Below, piece after piece: positions 45,975 to 63,976 of a stretch of DNA of 64,000 bases. A program made the position numbers and the translations under genes. The notes beneath the pieces are model-generated. The model ran no database searches. It saw only the letters and a list, made by a program, of their open reading frames with translations, and was not told where the DNA came from. Source of the DNA: Candidatus Xenobia bacterium (GTDB lineage Bacteria; Vulcanimicrobiota; Xenobia; Xenobiales; QWHO01); assembly GCA_045863235.1 (NCBI GenBank), contig BTUM01000027.1, forward strand, positions 1 through 64,000, read 5' to 3'. Each line of letters opens with the position of its first letter. Position 1 is the first letter of the stretch.

Positions 45975-46991
45975 CTAGATGGCCATTCCGCCGAAGTTGG
46001 GCTGCTGGATGCCACCCAGACCCGGGACGTTCTGCCCGAGGCCGAGGCCCTGAGCCAGGGGGTTCTGCTGGCCGAACTGGCCGAGCTGCTGGGCACCGCC
46101 GCCGCCACCCAGGGCAGCCTGCACCAGAGCGTGAGTCTCCGGCTTGATCTGCTGGGCAGACTGCGGGTTCTGGATAGCCTGGGCGTAGGACTGGGCGAGC
46201 TGGGCTTTGAGCGGGTTGCCGCCACCCTGCTGGAGCGGGTTGGCTCCGAACGGCTGCTGGCCGCCGAAGGGCTGCTGTCCACCGGGCTGGCCCGCACCGA
46301 GTCCGGCCTGGAAACCGGCCATAAGCGGGTTGCCACCACCAGCGGCACCGGGAGCGCCCACACCGGGGATTCCTCCCTGCTGGCCGAACTGCTGCTGTCC
46401 GAAGGGCTGCTGCCCACCGAGACCGCCACTCTGCATGAGGACCTGAGCCGCCATGCCCTGAAGCTGGGAGTTGATGTCGCCCTGGCCCTGGCCGGGCTGC
46501 TGGGCCTGCTGCGGTCCGCCAGCCTGCTGAGGCCCGCCGCCGCCGCCAGCCGGGGGAGCGCCGCCGCCACCGCCCTGCTCGCCGCCGCCGCCGCCGCCTT
46601 TGTCGCCGCCGCCGCCAGCGCCTTCACCGGGCTTGTTGCCGCCCATCTCGGCCAGCTTCTTCTTGAGATCCTCGATCTCTTTGTTGAGATCCTCGATCTC
46701 TTTGCCCTTACCAGGCTTTTCGCCCTCTTTGCCCTCCCCGGGCTTCTTGCCTTCGCCTGGCTTCTCGCCATCACCCTTGATGTCGACTTTGTCCTTAGGA
46801 TCCTCTGGCTTTTTGGCGTCGTCCGCTTTCTTGGCTTCGCCAGGCTTTTTGGCTTCAGCAGCCTTTTTCGCATCGGCTGCGCCGGCAGCCTTGTTCTGGG
46901 TCGCACCTTTGTTCGCCTGAGGCTGTTGCCGCTGAGGCTGCGTCCGCTGAGAACCACCACTACCGCTAGTCTTACTCACTCCACCAGCCAT
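45975..46991 (-). CDS. Gly/Gln-rich, Cys- and Trp-free low-complexity protein (harpin-like composition)
   Basis: AAGGAG RBS, extended -10 upstream and terminator downstream; KPGE, KEIEDL and GGQQPF repeats. Confidence 0.85.
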   Translation of the reverse strand: MAGGVSKTSGSGGSQRTQPQRQQPQANKGATQNKAAGAADAKKAAEAKKPGEAKKADDAKKPEDPKDKVDIKGDGEKPGEGKKPGEGKEGEKPGKGKEIEDLNKEIEDLKKKLAEMGGNKPGEGAGGGGDKGGGGGGEQGGGGGAPPAGGGGGPQQAGGPQQAQQPGQGQGDINSQLQGMAAQVLMQSGGLGGQQPFGQQQFGQQGGIPGVGAPGAAGGGNPLMAGFQAGLGAGQPGGQQPFGGQQPFGANPLQQGGGNPLKAQLAQSYAQAIQNPQSAQQIKPETHALVQAALGGGGGAQQLGQFGQQNPLAQGLGLGQNVPGLGGIQQPNFGGMAI

Positions 46992-51925: not shown

Positions 51926-52243
51926 AGAAACACCTGCCTTTCTTGAATCCCAATCACCAGCGTTCGGCTCGTGATTGAAAAAGATTCCCCCTCGTTATGG
52001 TCTTCCTTCGCTTTCTGCGAGAAGAGTCCTCTCTCTCGCCACAGCCTCTCAAGTGCTTGATTTGAAGCCGTTCCTTCTCATTGTCGACAGCGAAGGACTG
52101 CTTTGAGGCACGGCCTTCCCTCCCCCGATGGAAGATTACCTGGTCTCGAATCAACTTCAAAGGAACAAGTCTTCGACCGCTCCTGCCTTCGCGGACATTC
52201 TCCCCGGGGGAACTGCTCGCGAAAATGTAGAAAGGCCGCTCCG

Positions 52244-52744
52244 ATGTTGCTCTGCTATCACTGCCTGAACCTGAGCAAGCCCCAGGATCAGTGCGAACAC
52301 TGTGGAGCTGACCTACCGGCCCGCAAAGCCCCTCCGCGCATCCAGACAAAGACGGCCCTGCTGAACCGCTGGTCGCTCGAGTATCGAACCCGAGACATCG
52401 AGCGCCCCGAGCTCGAAACCCGGTTGGCCGAAGAGGAGCGGACTATCCGAACGATTCTTGGCCAGGCAGCCGACGAGCAGTTCGACTCCGAATCCCTGCC
52501 GATGGTCGAGGAAGAGCTCCGCACCGGACGCCAGGGCCTGCAAGCCTACCTCGAGGCCCTGGCCGGGTTTCGGACCTGGCTCGACACGGTTGACTCCGGC
52601 GAGCTCAAACGGGTCCTGGCCCTGGCCGCTCAGGCCGACAGTCTCATGAACGATGCGGTAGCAATGAACTTTAACAACTATCGCACTTACCTGGAGAGCA
52701 TGGGGGAGTTTCTCCACCAGGCAGGCTACCAGGGGCCACAATAG
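52244..52744 (+). CDS. Zinc-ribbon + helical bundle hypothetical protein
   Basis: MLLCYHC...CEHC; helical domain similar to the 53791 product. Confidence 0.8.
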   Translation: MLLCYHCLNLSKPQDQCEHCGADLPARKAPPRIQTKTALLNRWSLEYRTRDIERPELETRLAEEERTIRTILGQAADEQFDSESLPMVEEELRTGRQGLQAYLEALAGFRTWLDTVDSGELKRVLALAAQADSLMNDAVAMNFNNYRTYLESMGEFLHQAGYQGPQ

Positions 52745-53790: not shown

Positions 53791-54279
53791 GTGAGCGAGC
53801 AGGCGGGCGACCAGACACTTCAAGATCCGTCCATGAGCAAGCTGAAGGCACAACTGCCGCAAGAAACTGCTCAGGCGCCTGAGCCCGAGCGGGTGAATGA
53901 GCGCCTGATTCAGCTGGAGGATGCTGCTCGCAAGACAGCCGAGGGTGAGTGGTCGGCTGAAGAGCTTGGCGAGTTCCTGGACGGCATCATTCGCATTCTC
54001 AACGAGCGCGAGCAGCAGATCCGCGAGATCGAGATTCCCCCTGAGGCCGTGGAGGACTTTCGTGAGGAGCTCGAGGTCGGCTTCTCCGGTATCCAGCTCT
54101 ACACCGAGGGCGTCCAGCGCATGCTGCTGTTCGTGGAAGACCCCAACCCGGCGCACCTGGAGGAAGGGCTCGAGCTGGCGCGCCAGGGCAATGACCACAT
54201 CAACGAGGCCATGCGCATCAACCGCGAGAATCGCCGCAAGCTCGAAGAAATGTACATCGACGCCTCCACCATGATGTAA
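53791..54279 (+). CDS. Acidic helical bundle hypothetical protein
   Basis: GGAGGA RBS before GTG; paralog of the 52244 product and of the 41934 repeats. Confidence 0.85.
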   Translation: MSEQAGDQTLQDPSMSKLKAQLPQETAQAPEPERVNERLIQLEDAARKTAEGEWSAEELGEFLDGIIRILNEREQQIREIEIPPEAVEDFREELEVGFSGIQLYTEGVQRMLLFVEDPNPAHLEEGLELARQGNDHINEAMRINRENRRKLEEMYIDASTMM

Positions 54280-54347: not shown

Positions 54348-55769
54348 TCAGCTTCGGAAATACTGGTGCCACATCTCGTTGACGCGTTGCATGGTCATCG
54401 CCTGGTTGACGGTCGACTCCTGGAAGGTCTTCATCCAGTAGTCCATGGTTTCTTTCATGATCTTCCAGCGCTCGGCCTCATGCTTTTGCCGCTCGGCCCA
54501 GATCTGCATCCAGATGTCGCGAGCCCCTTCCTGGTCCTGAAGGATCTGCTGCATTCGGCGAGCCTGGTCAGCCGCGGACATGGTCGGGCCGCCAGGACCA
54601 CCGGGGCCTCCCGGGCCGGACGGGGGAATCCCGCTCCCGCCGGGCGGAACACCGCCACCACCGGGCGGGATGCCGCTCCCACCGGGCGGAACGCCGGTCC
54701 CCCCAGGGGGAATTCCGCTCCCTCCGGGTACGAATGCGCTGCCCCCAGGAGGCACACCGCCGCCGCCTCCAGGGGGAAGGCCCGAGCCGCCTCCAGGAGG
54801 AGTTGCTCCGCCTCCATTACCGGGCGCCTCGGCCACCGGCGAGGAGAGCAGGCCCGGAGCATTGGTGGAGCCGAGCAGCTGCTGCGCGGGTGGGCCTTGC
54901 AGGGCCAGACCGGACTGCTGGCCGACCAGCTGGTTTCCGCCCGGAGCCACGGGACCGCCGCCGTTGCCGGCCAGAGTCACCAGGTTCGTCCCGGCGGGAG
55001 TGCCGCCCAGGCTGTAGACCAGGCCCCTGCCCGTATTGGCGATCTGCTCCATCAGGCCGTACTGACTGAGCTTGTCTCCGTAGGCTTTGAGCTCGGCGTT
55101 GCCAGGATCACTGGCCAGTTGAGCCGCGACTTCTTTGCTGGCTGCCTGACGGAAGATATCGATCGCGGGCGTCTGCTTGCCGGCTGCCCGATCGGCTTCG
55201 AACGCCTGGTTCAAAGCATCTCCGAAGGCAGGATTCTTAGCCAGTTGCGGGGGAACGTTGGTGCTGATGTCGCCTTCCAGCTGGTTCAGTTGCGCAGAGG
55301 CCACATTGATGGCCGCCTGACCAGCGGCCGCGCCACCGGGCAACCCCTGACCCATCAGAGCCTTCCCCTCGTTCGCGAAGGCTGACTTGAAGCCATCCGG
55401 CGCCACCGAGACCAGCTCCACAAGCTGTTTGCCAAGTTGCTCAGGATCAAGAACTTCGGCCTGGCTCCCCGATTCGGCCCGAGGGGTGTTCTCGCGCCTG
55501 ACCAGCTCGCGCGACTGGGACTCTTCGCCCTGGCGCGTCTGCTTGGCGCCGGCCTGGCCGGTGAGGCCCAGGTGGGTCGCGTTCTCCAGGTGCTCAGCGT
55601 GACGCTCCTGGTGGCTGAGGGTCACCTCGTCGTTTCGCTGCTCGACGGAGGTTCCGTCCGTCTTGCGAGTGGTTCCGGTGACCGCAGTCTGGCCCACGTG
55701 CTCGGTGCGCTTGACGAGGGCCTGCTGATTCCCGACCGCCGGATTGATGGGACTTCCACTTGTAGCCAC
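54348..55769 (-). CDS. 473-aa protein with Pro/Gly linker and C-terminal domain homologous to the 81-aa triplet
   Basis: AAGGAG RBS before GTG 55769 (MATSGSPINP); promoter upstream; C-terminal AERWKI...TVNQA...W..Y..S. Confidence 0.88.
   Translation of the reverse strand: MATSGSPINPAVGNQQALVKRTEHVGQTAVTGTTRKTDGTSVEQRNDEVTLSHQERHAEHLENATHLGLTGQAGAKQTRQGEESQSRELVRRENTPRAESGSQAEVLDPEQLGKQLVELVSVAPDGFKSAFANEGKALMGQGLPGGAAAGQAAINVASAQLNQLEGDISTNVPPQLAKNPAFGDALNQAFEADRAAGKQTPAIDIFRQAASKEVAAQLASDPGNAELKAYGDKLSQYGLMEQIANTGRGLVYSLGGTPAGTNLVTLAGNGGGPVAPGGNQLVGQQSGLALQGPPAQQLLGSTNAPGLLSSPVAEAPGNGGGATPPGGGSGLPPGGGGGVPPGGSAFVPGGSGIPPGGTGVPPGGSGIPPGGGGVPPGGSGIPPSGPGGPGGPGGPTMSAADQARRMQQILQDQEGARDIWMQIWAERQKHEAERWKIMKETMDYWMKTFQESTVNQAMTMQRVNEMWHQYFRS
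54586..54815 (-). repeat. Coding tandem repeat GGxG[IV]PP (about 21-nt units) plus GGP repeats
   Basis: PPGGGSGLPPGGGGGVPP...GGSGIPPGGTGVPPGGSGIPPGGGGVPPGGSGIPPSGPGGPGGPGGP. Confidence 0.85.
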
Positions 55770-55799
55770 GAAGCTCGCTCCTTTATCCCAGGTGTGTGG

Positions 55800-55881
55800 A
55801 GTATACCAGCCTGCGCTGAAGGCGTAAACGTCGAGTTTGTTTCCAAACTGTAAACAGATGGCCAATCCGATAAATGTTAAA
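55800..55881 (-). promoter_or_regulatory. Promoter TTTACG-N17-TATACT with upstream GTTTACA/TTTAACA boxes
   Basis: -35 at 55823-55828; extended -10 at 55800-55805; boxes at 55849-55855 and 55875-55881. Confidence 0.65.
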
Positions 55882-55985
55882 GCCCCGGGCGCCTGGAGCG
55901 TGGTCGGGCGTCGCGCAGCCGGAAATTGCCTCCGGGGCGCGACGACCACCCATCCACCGAGCCCAGAAAGCCCGGCGGCATCGGC

Positions 55986-56231
55986 CTAGCTCTTGATGTA
56001 GTCGCTCCATTTGTTGAACATCTTGTCCTGCGTCTTGGCCTGGTTGACGGTCACGTCCTGCTGAATCTCGAAAATCTTCGTCTGTGTCTCGCGCAGAATC
56101 TTCCAGCGCTCGGCCTGCTGCTTTTGCGTATCGGCCATCATCTGGGTCTGAATGGTCTGGGCCTGCATCTGGTCGCTCAGGGCCATCTGGGCGATCGAGG
56201 CGGCGTTGGCGGCTCCACCGATGAGTAACAT
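55986..56231 (-). CDS. 81-aa Gln/Ala/Met-rich helical protein, copy 3
   Basis: Protein identical to copies 1 and 2; AGGAGG RBS. Confidence 0.92.
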   Translation of the reverse strand: MLLIGGAANAASIAQMALSDQMQAQTIQTQMMADTQKQQAERWKILRETQTKIFEIQQDVTVNQAKTQDKMFNKWSDYIKS

Positions 56232-56284
56232 GGTCGGTCCCTCCTGATTCTCTCTCTATCCCTCAAAAGTAGACGAAAGCTCTG

Positions 56285-56324
56285 AAAAAAAGCTGAGGGG
56301 CCGGCCTTGCGACCGACCCCGCAG
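56285..56324 (-). terminator. Intrinsic terminator after copy 2
   Basis: Minus strand GGGGTCGGTC-GCAA-GGCCGGCCCC followed closely by T7. Confidence 0.75.
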
Positions 56325-56349
56325 AGAAAGCCCCACCCGATACAGGGAC

Positions 56350-56595
56350 TTAGCTCTTGATATAGTCGCTCCACTTGTTGAACATCTTGTCCTGCGTCTT
56401 GGCCTGGTTGACCGTGACGTCCTGCTGAATTTCGAAGATCTTGGTCTGCGTCTCGCGCAGAATCTTCCAGCGCTCGGCCTGCTGCTTCTGCGTATCGGCC
56501 ATCATCTGGGTCTGAATGGTCTGGGCCTGCATCTGGTCGCTCAGGGCCATCTGGGCGATCGAGGCGGCGTTGGCTGCTCCACCAATGAGTAGCAT
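56350..56595 (-). CDS. 81-aa helical protein, copy 2
   Basis: GGAGG RBS; own promoter-like TTTACT-N17-GATAGA at 56647-56675. Confidence 0.92.
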   Translation of the reverse strand: MLLIGGAANAASIAQMALSDQMQAQTIQTQMMADTQKQQAERWKILRETQTKIFEIQQDVTVNQAKTQDKMFNKWSDYIKS

Positions 56596-56805
56596 TGTTT
56601 TCGGTCCTCCCGGGTGTGTTATTTTTGACTTCTCTGTCTTGGGACTTCTATCACGCGCCCGGGCCGGAAAGTAAAGATGCTTGTCTCTGTATCCGGGCAG
56701 TTTTCCTGAGGACGGCGGGTGACTTGCCGACCCGGCCGCAAGGCCGGGTCTGCAACCGAAAACGGCTCGACCTCGCGGCCGAGCCGGCTTGAAGCGGACC
56801 TGAGC

Positions 56806-57051
56806 CTAGCTCTTGATGTAGTCGCTCCACTTGTTGAACATCTTGTCCTGCGTCTTGGCCTGGTTGACCGTGACGTCCTGCTGAATTTCAAAGATCTTCG
56901 TCTGGGTCTCACGCAGAATCTTCCAGCGCTCGGCCTGTTGCTTCTGCGTGTCGGCCATCATCTGGGTCTGGATGGTCTGGGCCTGCATCTGGTCACTCAG
57001 GGCCATCTGGGCAATTGAAGCTGCGTTGGCTGCACCACCGATTAAGAGCAT
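56806..57051 (-). CDS. 81-aa helical protein, copy 1
   Basis: Identical protein with the most divergent synonymous codons; hairpin at 56729-56750 downstream. Confidence 0.92.
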   Translation of the reverse strand: MLLIGGAANAASIAQMALSDQMQAQTIQTQMMADTQKQQAERWKILRETQTKIFEIQQDVTVNQAKTQDKMFNKWSDYIKS

Positions 57052-57087
57052 ACGTGAAACCCCTTCCAGCGTTTAGACTTCGCCCCT

Positions 57088-57144
57088 ATTATCCCATCCC
57101 ACCTCAACAAAGTAAAGACCAATGTTTGCAAACATTTTGTTAAC
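57088..57144 (-). promoter_or_regulatory. Promoter TTTACT-N17-GATAAT plus 16-bp palindrome and GTTAACA box
   Basis: -10 at 57088-57093; -35 at 57111-57116; perfect palindrome AATGTTTGCAAACATT at 57121-57136; GTTAACA at 57138-57144. Confidence 0.65.
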
Positions 57145-57161
57145 TTGTGCGACGGAAGTGC

Positions 57162-57476
57162 TCAATCCACGTGCGTCTGGTTCACAACCAGTTTGACGCC
57201 TGCCGCCTTGAGGTCTTCCACCAGCTTCTCGTTGTTCTCGTAGAGGGTCAGCACGGTGGCGTCGCGGGCGGCCGTGACCACCACCTCCATCATTTCCAGA
57301 AAGAGCTTGGGATCCACCGAGGGGGACTCGGAAAGGCGCTTGAGCAGGTCGGTGTTCTGGGGACGCTTCATCTCCCGGGCCCAGCTCTCGAGATACATCC
57401 GATTGAAGATGCTGAGCATCGCGGGGGCGCTGAGGCCGAGCTGACCTTCCAGATCGCTGGCGGTGGCTTCTTCCAT
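57162..57476 (-). CDS. Hypothetical 104-aa acidic helical protein
   Basis: AGGAGG RBS inside the end of the aminotransferase gene; last gene of the flhB-flhA run. Confidence 0.8.
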   Translation of the reverse strand: MEEATASDLEGQLGLSAPAMLSIFNRMYLESWAREMKRPQNTDLLKRLSESPSVDPKLFLEMMEVVVTAARDATVLTLYENNEKLVEDLKAAGVKLVVNQTHVD

Positions 57477-57482
57477 GTCGAG

Positions 57483-58829
57483 CTACCTCCTGACCACCGA
57501 GTTGATGCGGTTGGCGATATCCATCAAGTAACCGTTGATTCCCTGAGGCCCAATCTTTTGCATGTGATCGAAGAGAGAACGCCAGGTCTCCAGCAGATGC
57601 TTGAGGTCGGCGTCGCTCGAGACATAGGGAGGCGACACTCGGATCACCTCAGGGCAGTGCACCATCGAGGTGAGCAGGATGCTGTGCTCCTCGCGAATCA
57701 TCTCCTGCACGGTCAGGCCGACAGCTGGAGCCGTCGTGCACAGGCAGCGCATCAATCCCACGCCCCGATGGCCTACGGCAAGGTCCGGGAAGTCGCGGCA
57801 CAGCTCGTCGAAGCCCTTCTCGAGGAGATTGCCCAGATGGGCTGAGCGCTCGACCAGTTTCTCGCTCTCGAGCGCATCCAGGGTGGCCACACCGGCCGCG
57901 CAGGCCAGCGGATTGCCGGCAAAGGTCGAGTTATTGAAGAGGGGTCGCGCCTCCTCGGCGGCCCGAACTCGGGCCGAGTAGAGCACGGCTGAAACCGGGC
58001 AGACCGCGCCCGACAAAACTTTGCCGACACAGATCAGATCGGGCACCACTCCTGAGGCGTCCAGCGCGAACCAGCGGCCGGTGCGACCAAGTCCCGACTG
58101 GATCTCATCGGCGATCAGCAGGGCTCCGTGAGCATCGCAGAGAGCCCTGACCCGCCGCAGGTACTCGGGAGTGGCTACCGAGCAACCGGAAGCCCACTGG
58201 ACCGGCTCGAGAATCACGGCGGCCACATCCGGTCCCATGGCCTTCTCGAGCGCGGCAACGTCCAGGAAGGGGACGATGGTCGCGTCGCTCAAGTTGGGCG
58301 TGCCGCTCTTCCAGTAATCGATGCCTCCCACGCTGAGGGTGCCGATCGACATTCCATGGTAGCCCATGTGCATGCCGATGAAACGGGGGCGTCCGGTCGC
58401 CAGGCGCGCCAGCTTCAACGCCGCCTCCACCGCCTCCGTTCCCGAGTTGAGGAAGGCGCAGAAGGGCAGATTCCCCGGCACTCGCGCCGAAAGTCGAGCG
58501 GCCAGAACAGCTTGACCGGGCACGATGCCGGCTCGGGTCGAGAGCGCGGCGCGCTCGAGCTGTCGCTTCACTGCCTCGATCACTTTGGGATGCGCATGGC
58601 CCAGCCCGAAGGTACCCCCCGCACCCATGCAGTCATAGTAACGACGACCCCGAGGATCGATGAGATAGGCGCCTTCCCCCCGCCACTCGACCAGGGCGCT
58701 GCCCAGAGCCCGCAAAGAGCGAGCCAGGGTGGGATTCATGTGCCTCTCCTGCAGGTCGAGCTGGTCGGCCAGCAACTGGGCGTACTCGGCTTCGTCGAGA
58801 ACCTCGGGATAGTCCAACCAATCGCGCAT
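57483..58829 (-). CDS. Class III PLP aminotransferase (putrescine/ornithine aminotransferase-like)
   Basis: NSGTEAVEAALK, GYHG, ILEPVQ, DEIQSGLGRTG, GK and STFAGNP motifs. Confidence 0.9.
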   Translation of the reverse strand: MRDWLDYPEVLDEAEYAQLLADQLDLQERHMNPTLARSLRALGSALVEWRGEGAYLIDPRGRRYYDCMGAGGTFGLGHAHPKVIEAVKRQLERAALSTRAGIVPGQAVLAARLSARVPGNLPFCAFLNSGTEAVEAALKLARLATGRPRFIGMHMGYHGMSIGTLSVGGIDYWKSGTPNLSDATIVPFLDVAALEKAMGPDVAAVILEPVQWASGCSVATPEYLRRVRALCDAHGALLIADEIQSGLGRTGRWFALDASGVVPDLICVGKVLSGAVCPVSAVLYSARVRAAEEARPLFNNSTFAGNPLACAAGVATLDALESEKLVERSAHLGNLLEKGFDELCRDFPDLAVGHRGVGLMRCLCTTAPAVGLTVQEMIREEHSILLTSMVHCPEVIRVSPPYVSSDADLKHLLETWRSLFDHMQKIGPQGINGYLMDIANRINSVVRR

Positions 58830-58841
58830 GTGGGCCCTTCC

Positions 58842-60701
58842 TCAACGCACGGCGGCGATCAGCTCGCTCACCATGGTGTAGCGGTTTTTTCCGAACGGAG
58901 GGATCAGGTACACCCCCCGAATCTTCTTGCGAATCCGTGCCAGGAGGTCGTTTGTCAGCTCCATCGCCAGTTTCTGGCCATCCTCCGGTGTCTCAACCTT
59001 CTCGTACTGCGCCAGAATCTCCTCGGGTATGACGATTCCGGGGATCTTGCCGGCGGCGAAGAACTCGGCATTTCGTCGACTGGTGATGGGCAAAATGCCA
59101 ACCAGGATGGGAATCGGGAGATGGGCGGTGGCCTCCAGCATCATGTCCACCTCCAACTCACGGTAGACCGGCTGGGTATAGATGAACTGCGCTCCCGCTT
59201 CCACCTTCTGCTCCAGCCATTTGAGCTGAGCCTTGTGCCCGCGGCCGGGGTTAAAGCCCCCTCCGATCATGAAGTCGCACCGGCAGCAGGGGGCCTGATT
59301 GAAAAGGCGACCCGCATTCATGCTCTTGATCAGGCGCATGAGGTTGACCGAGCTCTTGAGGTCGTTGACCCTGGAGGAGTACTTATCGTGGTCGCCCACA
59401 TTGGGATGGTCGCCTGTCACGGCCAGCACCGCCCGGATGCCGGCGTGCCAGGCGCCCAGCAGATAGGATTGCACCGCGACTAGATTGCGATTGCAGGCCG
59501 AAAGATGGATCATGGTCGGGATCTGCGTCTCGCGCTGCATCTGGGCCGCCGACACCAGCGGGTCCACGGTCACCTTGGCCCCAGCATTATCGGGCACGTC
59601 AAAAAGGTGGGCACCCTCCTGAGCAAGCTTCTTGCCAGCCTCGAGAAAGCTGGTCAGGGAATGCTCGCGGTTGGGGCGCATCTCGACCGAGATGACGAAA
59701 TCGACGCTTTTAAAGACCTGCTCGAAGGGATTGGGCTCCTGCACCGCCTCGGGAGCGGGGGCAACCACCTCCTGCACCCGTAGCGCACTGGGATGGCGCT
59801 CGGCGGGGGGCTTGAGACCCTCGACAGCCTGCTTGAGCATGGCGATGTGCGCCGGCTCGGTGCCACAGCAACCGCCTACGATACAGGCACCCGCTTCGAC
59901 CAGGCGCTTGCCGAACCGCTGGAACTGTTCGGGATTGACATGGTAGACCACGCGGCCCCGGTCGATCTCGGGCGAGCCGGCATTGGGCATGGCCACCAGC
60001 GGCAGGTGGGTGAACTGAGCCAGGCGCTGGATGGTTTCCAGAACATCGTAAGGTGCTCGGCAGTTGGCCCCCATCAGATGGGCGCCCAGTCGGGTGGCCA
60101 GCAACGCGAACTCACTGATGTCAGCTCCGGTGCCGGTTTTCCCGTTCTGGACTCCGCCCACCTCGAACAGCACTGGAACCCCGAAAGAAACGGCCTCGCG
60201 CAGGGCCGCCTGGGCCTCATAGAGCGACTGAAAGGTTTCCAGAGCCAGGAAGTCGACGCCGGCCTGCACCAGGGCCTCCATCTGCTCGTTGAAGATGGCC
60301 GCCACTTCGCTCTCTTCATACTCGTGGCGAATGTGGTGAATCTCGAGTGGGCCCACCGAGCCTCCCACGAACCGCTCGGGACCGGCGCACTCGCGGGCCA
60401 TCCTGACCCCCTCGATGTTGATCTCGCGGACCTCGTTGGCCAGCCCATGGCGGGCCAGCTTGATGGAGTTGGCTCCGTAGGTATTGGTGAGGAGAATGTC
60501 GGCACCCACCTCCACGTAAGAGCGGTGCACGGCCATCACCAACTGGCGATAGAGCGGGTCGAGGTTGAGGCCGTCCAGGCATTCGTGCCCGGCCCCGCGC
60601 AGACCCTGAAGCCGGGTGCCCATGGCCCCATCGCAGACCAGGACCCTGGTCTTGATGGCTTCCAGCAGCGTTTTCTTCGCAGTGATGGGCGCTTCCCACA
60701 T
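58842..60701 (-). CDS. yitJ: Bifunctional homocysteine S-methyltransferase / methylenetetrahydrofolate reductase
   Basis: DGAMGT, GANC, PNAG and GGCCG Zn motifs; C-terminal MTHFR with CNRN, TGD and KVEAGAQFIYTQPVY. Confidence 0.92.
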   Translation of the reverse strand: MWEAPITAKKTLLEAIKTRVLVCDGAMGTRLQGLRGAGHECLDGLNLDPLYRQLVMAVHRSYVEVGADILLTNTYGANSIKLARHGLANEVREINIEGVRMARECAGPERFVGGSVGPLEIHHIRHEYEESEVAAIFNEQMEALVQAGVDFLALETFQSLYEAQAALREAVSFGVPVLFEVGGVQNGKTGTGADISEFALLATRLGAHLMGANCRAPYDVLETIQRLAQFTHLPLVAMPNAGSPEIDRGRVVYHVNPEQFQRFGKRLVEAGACIVGGCCGTEPAHIAMLKQAVEGLKPPAERHPSALRVQEVVAPAPEAVQEPNPFEQVFKSVDFVISVEMRPNREHSLTSFLEAGKKLAQEGAHLFDVPDNAGAKVTVDPLVSAAQMQRETQIPTMIHLSACNRNLVAVQSYLLGAWHAGIRAVLAVTGDHPNVGDHDKYSSRVNDLKSSVNLMRLIKSMNAGRLFNQAPCCRCDFMIGGGFNPGRGHKAQLKWLEQKVEAGAQFIYTQPVYRELEVDMMLEATAHLPIPILVGILPITSRRNAEFFAAGKIPGIVIPEEILAQYEKVETPEDGQKLAMELTNDLLARIRKKIRGVYLIPPFGKNRYTMVSELIAAVR

Positions 60702-60719
60702 CGCCCGGGCTGCTTCGTC

Positions 60720-62858
60720 TTAGACCTGGACCATTCCCACCGAGTTGACGTTGACTTTTGGGGCGATTTCGTTCCAAGAGAGCAGCACCAGGTTGGGGAA
60801 GGAGCGCTCGGTCAATTTGCGCAGGGCCGAGCGAACCGGGGGTGAGCACAACAAGATCGGCTGGAGGCCGCGCTCCTGCAACTGCTGCACCTGGCCCGAG
60901 ATGGCCTGCAGGATCTCCTGGCCGGTATTGGGGTCCAGGGTCAGGAACGAGCCCGCCTCAGTGCGCTGGATGGCCGACTGGATGACCTGCTCGATGGACG
61001 GGTCGAGCGTGATCACGTTGATCGTGCCCTCATTGTTCATGTACTCTTTGCAGATCACCCGGCTGAGAGCCACCCGCACGAACTCGGTGAGCATCTCAGG
61101 GTCTTTGGTGATGTGCACGTTGTCGGCCAGTGTCTCCAGAATGGTGACCAGGTCGCGGATGGAGACCCGTTCTTTGACCAGATTCTGGAGCACCTTCTGA
61201 ACTTCGCCCAGGGTCAGGGCGTCGGGGATGACCTCCTTGACCACGGCCGGGTGGGTCTTCTTGACGGTGTCGATGAGGGCCTGAACCTCCTGGCGGCCGA
61301 GCAGCTCGTTGGCGTGGCCGCGCACGACCTCGGTCAATTGGGTCGCCACCACGCTCACCGGGTCGAAGATCATACAACCGAGCCGCTCGGCGTCGCCACG
61401 CTGCTCGGGCGAGATCCAGACGCCGGGCATGCCGTAGGTCGGGTCGACCGTCTTGGTGCCGCGCAGATTCTTCAGCTTCTCTTCCGGGCCGATGGCCAGG
61501 AACTGATTGATCTGAACCTCGCCCTGAGCCACCTCGATCTCCTTGATCTTGATGACGTAGGCATTGGGCTTGAGCTGCAAGTTGTCGCGGAAGCGCACAC
61601 CGGGAACCACGATACCGAGCTCGAGGGCGATGTGACGACGAATCGAGGTGACGCGCTCGAGTAGCTTGGCGCCCTGGTTGGGGTCCACCAGAGAGAGGAG
61701 GCCGCGTCCCACTTCCAGCGAGATGGGGTCGACCTGCATCAACTGCACGACGCTCTCTGGCTTCTTGACCTCGGCCTTCTTCTTCTGGTCTTGCTCCTGG
61801 GCCTGAACGTCGGCAACCTGGACCGACTTCTTGGTCAGAATCGTGCCCACGAAGAACATCAGGCCGCCCAGGCAGAAGAAGGGAAGTGGCGGGAAGGCAA
61901 ACAGCCCTACCACTCCCAGACCCCCGAGCAGGATCATAAAGCCGGCAGCCATTTTGAGCGCGCCCGGCTGGGCGGTGATCTGGCGGGTCACGTCGGAGCC
62001 CAGGTTGGAGTCGGAAGCGGCGCGCGAGACCACCATACCCATCGAGGTCGACATCAAGAAGGCGGGAAGCGTGGTGATGAGGCCGTTTCCGATGGAAAGA
62101 ATGGCGTAGATGTTGATGGCGTGGCCAGCCGACATCTTGTGGTAGAGCACGCCCACCAGGATGCCGCCGATCACGTTCACGACCATGATGACGATGGCCG
62201 CCATCGCGTCGCCTTTGACGAACTTGCCGGCACCGTCCATAGCGCCGTAGAAGTCGGCTTCCTTTTCGATCTGGCGCCGTTTGTTCTTGGCGCCTTCGGC
62301 ATCGATCAGGCCAGCGTGCAGGTCGGCGTCGATGGCCATCTGTTTACCGGGCATCGCGTCCAGGGTGAAGCGGGCGGCCACCTGGGCGATACGCTCGGCA
62401 CCGTTGGTGATCACCATCAGCTGAATGATGATCAAGATGATGAACATGATGAAGCCGACGACCAGGTTGCCGCCTACCACGACCTCACCGAAGGCGGGGA
62501 TCAGGTGGCCGGCGCCGATGGGCTTCTTGCTGACCGGGTCGAGCACGTTGCCGTGCAGCAGGATCATACGCGTGGCCGACACGTCCAGGGCCAGCCGGAA
62601 GAGGGTGGCCACCAGCAGCAGGGTCGGGAAGACGGCGAATTCGAGGGGCTCGGCGATGTAGATCGAGATCAGGATGGTGATCAAGGAGCCGGCGATGTTC
62701 ACCACCAGCAGAAGGTCCAAGAAGTCGGGCGGCATGGGCACGATCAGCATCATCACGATGCCGATCACGACCACGGCGATGCCGATGTCTGAGAACTTTA
62801 AAAGCTTGAGTAATGGATGGTCGGGTAAGCCGTCAGCTGGGTTCGGTTGTCCGGCCAT
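60720..62858 (-). CDS. flhA: Type III export gate protein FlhA/SctV
   Basis: FPTLLLVATLFRL, GAERIAQVAARFTLDAMPGKQMAIDADL, FYGAMDGAGKFVKGDA; large cytoplasmic domain. Confidence 0.96.
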   Translation of the reverse strand: MAGQPNPADGLPDHPLLKLLKFSDIGIAVVVIGIVMMLIVPMPPDFLDLLLVVNIAGSLITILISIYIAEPLEFAVFPTLLLVATLFRLALDVSATRMILLHGNVLDPVSKKPIGAGHLIPAFGEVVVGGNLVVGFIMFIILIIIQLMVITNGAERIAQVAARFTLDAMPGKQMAIDADLHAGLIDAEGAKNKRRQIEKEADFYGAMDGAGKFVKGDAMAAIVIMVVNVIGGILVGVLYHKMSAGHAINIYAILSIGNGLITTLPAFLMSTSMGMVVSRAASDSNLGSDVTRQITAQPGALKMAAGFMILLGGLGVVGLFAFPPLPFFCLGGLMFFVGTILTKKSVQVADVQAQEQDQKKKAEVKKPESVVQLMQVDPISLEVGRGLLSLVDPNQGAKLLERVTSIRRHIALELGIVVPGVRFRDNLQLKPNAYVIKIKEIEVAQGEVQINQFLAIGPEEKLKNLRGTKTVDPTYGMPGVWISPEQRGDAERLGCMIFDPVSVVATQLTEVVRGHANELLGRQEVQALIDTVKKTHPAVVKEVIPDALTLGEVQKVLQNLVKERVSIRDLVTILETLADNVHITKDPEMLTEFVRVALSRVICKEYMNNEGTINVITLDPSIEQVIQSAIQRTEAGSFLTLDPNTGQEILQAISGQVQQLQERGLQPILLCSPPVRSALRKLTERSFPNLVLLSWNEIAPKVNVNSVGMVQV

Positions 62859-62875
62859 AGATTACGTCCTTTCCG

Positions 62876-63976
62876 TCATCGCCGCGCCCCGGTCTTGCCG
62901 CGCCGCCGCTTCATCTCGCGTTTTCGTTTCAACTTGATCACGTAGGCCAGCACCTCGGCCACCGCCTTGTAGAGCTCGGTGGGGATGGCCTGGCCCACCT
63001 CGCAGGCTCCGAACAGCGTTCGCGCCAGCTCGACGTTCTCGATGATGGGTACGTCGTGGTCCTCAGCCTTGACCTTGATCTGCTGGGCCACCAGGTTCTC
63101 CCCCTTGGCCACGACCATGGGAACCGGATCGACCCCGGTTTCGTACTTCAGGGCAATGGCCAGATGGGTAGGGTTGGTCACCACCGCCGAGGAGTTGGGC
63201 ACCTCCTCCATCATGCGGCCCTGGGCGCCCTGGCGCATGAGCTGGCGCATCTTGGCCTTGACCTGAGGGTTCCCCTCGGTATCCTTATACTCGTCTTTCA
63301 ACTCTTGCATGCTCATGCGCATCTGCTTCATGAACTGCTTGTACTGGAACAAGTAGTCGAGAATGGAGAGAGCCGTCATGCCGATCAGCACCTGGAAGGT
63401 GAGGCGCACCAGAATCGTCTTCACCAGGGCGATGGTCTGGTTGAGGTCCATCTGCGGGGAGGCAGCGAACTTGGGCAACTCGCCCTTGACGCACTTGTAG
63501 CAGATCCAGCCGATAACCACCACTTTCAGGATCTGCTTGACCAGTTCCATGACCGACTTCATGGAGAAGATCCGCTTGAACCCCTCGATGGGGTTGATCT
63601 TGCTCAAGGACGGCTTGAGGGGCTCGACCGTAAACAGAAACTTGACCTGGGCTACGTTGGCCAGAATGGCCATGATGAACACCGAGGCCAGCAGTGGGGC
63701 CAGCACGATGAGCACGGTGCCCATCATCAACATCGATTCGCCCATCAGGTTGCGCTCGTTCATCTGGAAAGTGGGGATCAGCATCCAGATGTACTTGGTG
63801 TAGTCGATGATGCGGGCGAGCATCATCTTGCCGCAGGTCAGCAGCACCCCGTAGCAGGCCAGCAGAAGCAGCGTGGAGATGATCTCCTGGCTCTTCAGTA
63901 CCTGGCCTTTCTTGCGCGCTTCCTGGAGCTTATGCTCGGTCGGTTCCTCGGTCTTGTCACTGTCGCTGCCGCCCAC
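62876..63976 (-). CDS. flhB: Type III export switch protein FlhB/SctU
   Basis: DKTEEPT..KL.EARKKGQ, EYKDTEGNP, NPTH autocleavage site, IPTELYKAVAEVL. Confidence 0.96.
   Translation of the reverse strand: MGGSDSDKTEEPTEHKLQEARKKGQVLKSQEIISTLLLLACYGVLLTCGKMMLARIIDYTKYIWMLIPTFQMNERNLMGESMLMMGTVLIVLAPLLASVFIMAILANVAQVKFLFTVEPLKPSLSKINPIEGFKRIFSMKSVMELVKQILKVVVIGWICYKCVKGELPKFAASPQMDLNQTIALVKTILVRLTFQVLIGMTALSILDYLFQYKQFMKQMRMSMQELKDEYKDTEGNPQVKAKMRQLMRQGAQGRMMEEVPNSSAVVTNPTHLAIALKYETGVDPVPMVVAKGENLVAQQIKVKAEDHDVPIIENVELARTLFGACEVGQAIPTELYKAVAEVLAYVIKLKRKREMKRRRGKTGARR

Follow-up and report, generated by a model that had tools for sequence, protein, structure and literature searches.

How should a flagellar export gate be read when the genes behind it encode three copies of one small helical protein? 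The question is raised by flhB and flhA at the end of a 64,000-nucleotide (nt) stretch of a Xenobia contig (C27:1-64000; "the window" hereafter means this whole stretch), part of an 8.36 Mb genome (G000) that is 97.6% complete and lies in 166 contigs. The original prediction held that an 81-amino acid (aa) protein encoded three times downstream of flhA, here called the 81-mer, is the major subunit of an undescribed filament exported through the FlhB-FlhA gate. Having followed this up in the whole genome and its relatives, we think it probable on balance that the locus belongs to a type III secretion machine that derives from the flagellum, has no motor and occurs in Xenobia and related Eremiobacterota (Vulcanimicrobiota) lineages, with the 81-mer as its exported filament subunit. 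In such a machine, the 81-mer probably builds a new kind of secretion fiber.

The gate is one part of a larger apparatus. In the window, flhB closes a basal-body and export operon that runs on past the window edge (contig C27 64000-79363); its genes, identified there by Pfam and NCBIfam, read on the same strand flgB, flgC, fliE, fliF, a fliG-like gene, fliG, fliH, fliI, fliJ, slt, fliK and a flgE-like gene, then fliM, two fliN genes, fliO, fliP, two fliQ genes, fliR, flhB and flhA. A second locus, kept in this genome and in all five relatives fetched, holds fliK2, an FlhB-C-like gene, flgF, flgG, the rod-binding flgJ and a gene for a FliA-type sigma factor. The combined set comprises the export gate and ATPase of a motile flagellum (FlhA, FlhB, FliPQR, FliHIJ) with FliO, its MS and C rings (FliF, FliG, FliM, FliN), a rod (FliE, FlgBCFG and the FlgJ cap), a lytic transglycosylase, a short hook (FlgE) and FliK rulers. 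For every core protein the flagellar model gives the better score and the Sct cut-off is not reached, so that no SctV/SctN/SctR/SctJ-type core is present; the FlhA of the window, for instance, reaches 616.5 with the SctV model, below the cut-off of 692.25. The original prediction had reported no rod or hook genes, which is true of the window, but the operon, in Bacillus order, begins just past its edge and flgF, flgG and flgJ lie in the second locus. The machine extends well past the gate: because MS ring, C ring, rod, short hook, two FliK-type rulers and a FliA-type sigma factor are all kept, the machine is a stripped flagellum.

The gene order is that of the Bacillus fla/che operon (flgB flgC fliE fliF fliG fliH fliI fliJ x fliK (flgD) flgE (fliL) fliM fliN fliO fliP fliQ fliR flhB flhA), and the hook protein, which matches FlgE models best while staying below their cut-offs, is of the same short form, with 271 aa here and 258 aa in Bacillus velezensis. 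Unlike its Bacillus counterpart, the operon has no flgD, fliL, flhF/flhG or chemotaxis genes, and 104-aa and 81-aa genes stand where Bacillus has flhF after flhA. In keeping with the original prediction, a survey of the genome found no canonical flagellar set elsewhere: it turned up no flagellin, FlgD, FlgK/L, FliD, MotAB or L/P rings, nor FlgA, FlgH or FlgI. Domain searches of the genome gave no flagellin N domain (PF00669), no FlgD (PF03963, at E 0.1), no MotB plug and no FlgI, and the sole MotA/ExbB-family match sits in an exbB-exbD-tonB-like operon and is ExbB. Queries for CsrA, FliW, FlgL, FlgK, FlgA, FlgH, FlgI, FliC, FliD, MotA and MotB, taken from the flagellar cluster of the class member G005, had no tblastn match at E 1e-3. 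Nor was there a dedicated secretin (SctC): the three matches, none of them near the clusters, are GspD of a type II operon, PilQ of a pil operon and one weak partial match. SctD, SctI, an SctW gatekeeper, tip and translocon proteins were not seen among the genes of the two loci, no genome-wide search for them having been made. By core sequences, secretin or needle the system is not a member of the injectisomes, and although it is built like a flagellum, neither the filament nor the stators of one were found.

These absences could mean that the cluster is an ordinary or decaying flagellum, with the 81-aa gene a neighbor by inheritance and the missing genes hidden in assembly gaps. Such a reading can point to core genes that all score as flagellar, to the gene order and short hook of Bacillus, to a genome split into 166 contigs and to the unrelated housekeeping genes that interrupt the cluster. 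An incomplete assembly cannot prove absence, and the class-wide pattern therefore carries the weight. Among the 44 Xenobia genomes of our class sample (related genomes, here and in the phylum sample of 201, are not independent), the same absences recur in 34, near-complete ones included. A FlhA of this type, counting sequences of >=75% identity that are either complete or truncated at the end of a contig, is present in 42 of the 44; the exceptions are G036, which is 71% complete, and G007, whose FlhA is a 64% form placed by the tree inside the same clade. Flagellin is found in only 10 class genomes, FlgI in 8 and the MotB plug in 12 (the same 10 and two weak matches), and the 10 flagellin-bearing genomes carry a further FlhA of 43-55% identity, which belongs to another FlhA clade. 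In family f3, none of 19 genomes has flagellin, while 18 keep this FlhA. The protein stays 72-100% identical even in genomes of 2.2-2.9 Mb, and the 104-aa and 81-aa genes stay together while the passengers around them change. We regard an ordinary or decaying flagellum as very improbable.

Phylogeny sets the machine apart in the same way. In a FlhA tree of 26 of 61 rows, from which the long-branched rows of families f15, f20 and f21 were left out, the FlhA of the motorless system forms a clade (support 100/100, stem 0.63) separate from the flagellar FlhA of the phylum (100/99) and from SctV (100/100). The FlhA of f15, f20 and f21 is sister to the motorless clade in the single-gene tree. The motorless system is old and not decaying.

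Downstream of flhA, the original prediction of three identical 81-aa genes stands: three minus-strand open reading frames (ORFs) encode one and the same protein with silent differences only (13, 19 and 23 of 246 nt; Table 1). RNA data, in the form of contigs from 4 of 24 listed runs, cover the array together with parts of flhA and flhB, and among the contigs listed those of three runs span the spacer between copies 1 and 2; contig depth gives no ranking of genes by expression. Silent-only differences and this bridging show that the copies are genuine, that purifying selection acts on them and that they did not arise as an echo of the assembly. As claimed, the run shares the strand of flhB-flhA, but it does not follow directly, since three genes lie between flhA and copy 1. 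Two of them vary among relatives: the methyltransferase gene is a passenger that is missing from this position in many, and the aminotransferase gene, though common, is inverted or absent in some. The third, the 104-aa gene, has 30 distinct homologues across loci and travels with the 81-aa gene in G005. Its product is modeled as three helices (predicted local distance difference test score, pLDDT, 86.6) and has no Foldseek match at E 0.001 and no atlas match of 0.9. The 473-aa protein behind the array consists of a variable N-terminal part, a Gly/Pro repeat linker and a C-terminal helix, and the homology of this helix to the 81-mer, also part of the original prediction, is borne out (41% over 75 aa, E 4.6e-8). 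A consensus scan found 2 promoter sites where 0.5 are expected, both of them predicted sites that are not evidence of function. One lies before copy 1 and the other, at 55828-55800, precedes the 473-aa gene, where it fits the 473-aa GTG start better than an alternative 533-aa reading. With terminator-like sites after copies 1 and 2 and after the 473-aa gene, these sites suggest that the array may be transcribed on its own.

Table 1. Genes and predicted sites at the flhB-flhA end of the window (window coordinates).
Feature	Position	Strand	Basis or remark
flhB, export switch	62876..63976	-	TIGR00328 386.7 bits, cut-off 349.25
flhA, motorless clade	60720..62858	-	TIGR01398 814.6 bits, above cut-off 772.1
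Bifunctional homocysteine S-methyltransferase/methylenetetrahydrofolate reductase (MTHFR)	58842..60701	-	NF006396 above cut-off
Class III aminotransferase	57483..58829	-	PF00202
104-aa three-helix protein, no known family	57162..57476	-	In most loci, immediately ahead of the 81-aa gene
Sigma-70-like promoter site before copy 1	57088..57116	-	Consensus scan, predicted
First copy of the 81-aa helical protein, candidate for the major filament subunit	56806..57051	-	
Second copy of the 81-aa helical protein	56350..56595	-	
Third copy of the 81-aa helical protein	55986..56231	-	
473-aa protein, GTG start, candidate minor subunit or tip	54348..55769	-	
162-aa conserved protein, converging on the cluster	53791..54279	+	At this place in many loci; paralogues in the genome

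The association of the 81-aa family with flhA, which the original prediction anticipated, is tight across the class. In counts made by hand from match coordinates in the 42 FlhA-bearing class genomes, the family lies on the same strand and within about 4 kb downstream of flhA in 27 and a divergent homologue does so in 4, bringing the downstream cases to 31 of 42; one genome (G005) has the 104aa-81aa module elsewhere, and in 10 the locus is cut by contig ends or has unlisted rows. Of 41 fetched loci, 12 show the direct order flhA, 104-aa, 81-aa; the pair persists as the passengers change, although this is synteny among kin that are not independent. The 81-mer itself matches 38 of the 44 class genomes. 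The six misses all belong to genus g3. There, at each of the four loci inspected, a helical protein of 80-81 aa occupies the same slot, and it can be aligned to the family profile without gaps; with hhalign, the four g3 rows score 27.6 against it, compared with at most 12.1 for 30 column shuffles and 9.0 for the reversed profile. Genus g3 also has scattered paralogues of its own form. In the phylum sample, the family profile matches 52 of 201 genomes (these tallies include G177, one f15 row, on which alone no claim rests). Beyond the class, the 81-aa family is present in all 13 genomes whose FlhA is 72-79% identical to this one. The 10 with a FlhA of 65-69% are not matched by that profile, and a broader one finds divergent members in two of the four tested.

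What kind of protein is the 81-mer? Like the Hrp pilins (HrpA, HrpE, HrpY, NopA) and the SctF needle, it is a small, helical protein without an apparent signal, encoded in a type III cluster, and as the original prediction noted it contains neither Pro nor WxG. AlphaFold models it as one helix (residues 3-80, pLDDT 82.9). Hrp pilins have a variable N-terminus and a conserved C-terminus; so does the 81-mer family, whose conservation is concentrated in the C-terminal half. Its neighbors by ESM features include HrpA_pilin clusters (0.91 and 0.90, the family being assigned to 23-24% of their members) and an HrpE-like one (0.88), and 4 of 50 family members match HrpA_pilin (PF09589), with a best E of 4.2e-4. 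No Pfam or NCBIfam family claims the 81-mer above cut-off, neither a cytoplasmic one nor the Hrp pilin families PF09589 and PF28047, and none of the 50 members matches an SctF family among the 25 families shown. Short forms often occur in several copies, and several lineages have them as tandem arrays of two or three. The copy in the cluster is often followed by one or two long proteins with the same terminal helix. Six dispersed paralogues (C78, C3, C69, C74, C12, C34) range from 89% identical short forms to the C-terminal helices of longer proteins.

A good deal weighs against taking this protein for an exported filament subunit. Export and filament are predictions from gene content, and no version of the system accounts for its passage across the outer membrane, for which it has no known ring. 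The best HrpA_pilin score, 21.5 bits, falls under the Pfam cut-off of 25, two of the four matching members did not repeat the match on a rescan at E 1, and GUCT is matched by more family members than HrpA_pilin is. Profile comparison with three needle or pilin-slot references (a Nitratidesulfovibrio SctF, Mycetohabitans pilin-slot ORFs and a Sinorhizobium ORF that we take to be NopA) gave no signal above reversed controls. The single-helix model, a monomer, is unlike the SctF hairpin; Foldseek found no match for it, a lone helix being uninformative in such a search, and a search of PDB sequences with the family profile returned only one designed peptide, at E 3. Linkage is not universal either: the gene lies away from flhA in G005, G047 and G049, G046 and G050 yielded no short homologue, and none of the 132 genomes of families f15, f20 and f21 matches the family profile, although most keep a divergent related cluster. 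The eight f15, f20 and f21 loci examined contain a fast-evolving cluster with no pilin candidate adjoining. Finally, many unrelated proteins, some with a TIR domain, end in the same helix, which can therefore act outside type III systems. The pilin-like character proposed by the original prediction is thus upheld as far as the single helix and the weak Hrp-pilin-like signals go, whereas homology to SctF or Hrp pilins is not established. Hrp pilins are described in a passage of PMC5483457 as hard to recognize by sequence, so weak similarity neither proves nor excludes kinship.

The shared helix invites another explanation, in which the machine is a motorless type III exporter but the 81-mer forms no filament: together with its longer relatives it would act as a secreted effector, as a pore-former or as a signaling or targeting module. 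The family profile finds 439 cluster representatives at E 0.001, and among the 94 scanned of 149 new ones listed, near-identical helices end unrelated proteins: 11 with TIR_2, and one each of VgrG, RHS and autotransporter type. Two further matches, P0245 and P0252, resemble by eye peptide precursors with a double-glycine leader, and six paralogues are dispersed in the genome. The 81-mer is moreover 60-75% conserved across the class, unlike Hrp pilins, which part of PMC5483457 reports to be under diversifying selection. Even so, strongly diverged forms do exist in genera g3 and g4, and the fixed place at the end of a structural operon, the identical triplication and the repeated tandem arrays fit a high-copy structural subunit. 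We consider a module without a filament unlikely.

If the 81-mer is a filament subunit, as we favor, the machine would not rotate. Its rod and short hook would assemble as in flagella, with the transglycosylase opening the wall, after which FliK and FlhB would switch export to the 81-mer; this protein would have no cleaved signal and, taking the place of flagellin, would polymerize into a thin pilus by way of its conserved C-terminal helix. The extra gene copies would supply dosage, the long proteins with the same helix would serve as minor or tip subunits displaying their variable N-terminal parts, and the 104-aa protein, a candidate chaperone or cap, would escort or cap the subunit. We infer that the system works like an injectisome with a Hrp-type pilus, and its likeliest use would be contact with, or protein delivery to, other cells. 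It differs from Hrp and SctF systems in that the 81-mer falls below the family cut-offs, has no similarity to the reference SctF and pilin-slot proteins, sits on a flagellar-type base without SctC, is multi-copy and is far more conserved, its likeness to HrpA and HrpE being limited to weak hidden Markov model and embedding similarity.

The structure might instead stay inside the envelope, as a rod-hook stub or periplasmic fiber with a role in export to the periplasm or in shaping the envelope. FlgH, FlgI, FlgA and a linked secretin are missing here, while true flagella in the class carry L/P ring genes, and Abby and Rocha argue for such a confined structure, in a passage of PMC3459982, for the secretin-less system of Myxococcales. 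According to the same source, those systems likewise have no motor, secretin or SctF and are vertically inherited and conserved, but they are without FlgBCDEK, FliEG and FlgH and score as injectisome. The Xenobia system keeps FlgBCEFG, FliE, FliF, FliG, FliM and FliO and scores as flagellar; its distal rod, rod cap, hook and two FliK rulers set it apart from the Myxococcales systems, and a multi-copy late substrate with long variable-domain partners makes more sense at the surface. Confinement to the envelope accordingly appears decidedly unlikely to us. Buchnera offers a second precedent, its basal body being cited in part of PMC3459982 as a non-motile use of the flagellum and a proposed secretion system. 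Buchnera, however, a reduced endosymbiont, had a single flagellum and lost parts of it, whereas the Xenobia system is a separate paralogous clade in genomes of 2-9 Mb, coexists with a full flagellum in 9 genomes of the class and possesses a dedicated gene for a candidate filament. Neither precedent combines a paralogous, phylum-old flagellar base with a filament candidate of its own.

A more far-reaching claim can be entertained, though we hold it tentatively and doubt it somewhat more than we believe it: that the machine represents a third main form among type III systems, with a flagellar base including rod and hook, no motor, a non-flagellin Hrp-like pilus and no secretin or L/P rings; that it is old in the phylum and a living intermediate between flagellum and injectisome, as a second origin or as sister of all injectisomes; that it is used against other cells; and that TIR and other proteins of unrelated bacteria have acquired its helix as a polymerizing or decoy module. 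The trees, which contain no Myxococcales sequence, bear on its ancestry. In a five-gene tree of 20 systems, the motorless system joins four of the five flagellar systems of the phylum (Shimodaira-Hasegawa-like approximate likelihood ratio test support, SH-aLRT, 86-90), and free trees place it outside the Sct clade. Approximately unbiased (AU) tests, both under LG+G4, do not reject a sister position to injectisomes (p-AU 0.75 with FlhA and 0.52 with the five genes), and the constrained tree has a slightly better score, so the trees do not decide between an independent origin and a sister of injectisomes. Grouping it with all five flagellar systems of the phylum is rejected (p 0.004), for which the long branch of G005 is probably responsible. 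A rooted FliI tree is poorly resolved, with long branches.

Injectisomes are held, in a passage by Abby and Rocha (PMC3459982), to have arisen once from flagella via a motorless, secretin-less intermediate, of which only the reduced Myxococcales system is known. The machine described here is conserved and widespread and looks like an earlier stage, with every core component flagellar, no motor or flagellin and a dedicated candidate filament subunit. Structural work on it can test in what order the motor was lost, the filament replaced and the outer membrane crossed. For these genomes, it also follows that "flagellar" genes mostly do not mean motility. Its retention from large free-living genomes down to those of 2.2-2.9 Mb suggests a core role in a poorly known lifestyle; for one family, predation has been suggested on other grounds in part of PMC9259500.

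The type III system is apparently undescribed: we found no account of it in the literature, most subscription papers lying outside our coverage, and the available passages of PMC9758169 and PMC11484240 do not treat it. For one Eudoremicrobium genome, the supplement of Paoli et al. 2022 (PMC9259500) lists two scaffolds, a full flagellar one and another that carries flgB, flgC, fliE, fliI, fliP and FlhA. TXSScan calls the FlhA of this second scaffold SctV there, with "no decision", and the passages of the paper examined leave the second scaffold undiscussed.

Several further observations concern the export genes and their relatives. Stand-alone FlhA cytoplasmic domains without the membrane part are encoded at C80:28012-29436, C3:26973-28256 and C1:377631-378896 (L106-L108); one has an FlhB-C-like N-terminus, and such forms, possible alternative substrate-docking subunits of the export ring, occur class-wide. 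Extra FlhA copies outside the operon (L054-L057, L061, L068) are lineage-specific duplicates inside the clade by the tree. In families f15, f20 and f21, a highly diverged Ala-rich copy of the transglycosylase-containing cluster (L079-L083, L090-L095, L097), present also in flagellin-free genomes, is often followed by secD-secF-like genes. Two CxxCxxCC (zinc/iron-chelating) proteins follow the helical genes in g3 (L050:16402-18680, L051-L053), and radical-SAM-like genes stand in a similar place, by eye, at L070 and L076; together with the aminotransferase and methyltransferase, these could serve in filament modification.

The helix itself recurs almost unchanged at the end of the TIR-domain proteins P0149, P0183, P0185, P0207, P0215, P0232, P0237, P0251, P0255, P0261 and P0263, and also of P0164, P0192, P0245 and P0252, which are VgrG, RHS and peptide-precursor-like proteins of other bacteria. 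There it could act as a polymerizing switch or as a decoy that senses the filament. TIR enzymes are activated by oligomerization, which fits a self-assembling helix; its place on unrelated proteins also shows that the motif needs no type III system to work. In a recurring family of proteins of 145-180 aa, the same helix is attached to an unnamed N-terminal domain (L045:9659-10204; P0126, P0127, P0129, P0144, P0145, P0160, P0161 and others), and the sole locus examined, from Bryobacterales, has no type III genes. In a Blastocatellia locus (L049:9896-10144), the helix forms the core of an 82-aa protein with, by eye, a double-glycine-like leader, and the gene sits between ABC transporter and HlyD-like genes. 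Neither match was retained as a type III locus, no cluster gene lying within 10 kb.

Elsewhere in the window, 53791-54279 and 52103-52744 encode two related helical proteins with at least five further paralogues in the genome, both of which adjoin the cluster in many relatives along with LolA-like and NlpC/P60-LysM-like genes. Farther off, 45975-46991 on the minus strand encodes a low-complexity protein of 338 aa, rich in Gly and Gln, that has a weak paralogue on contig C72 and resembles secreted harpin-like proteins in composition only.

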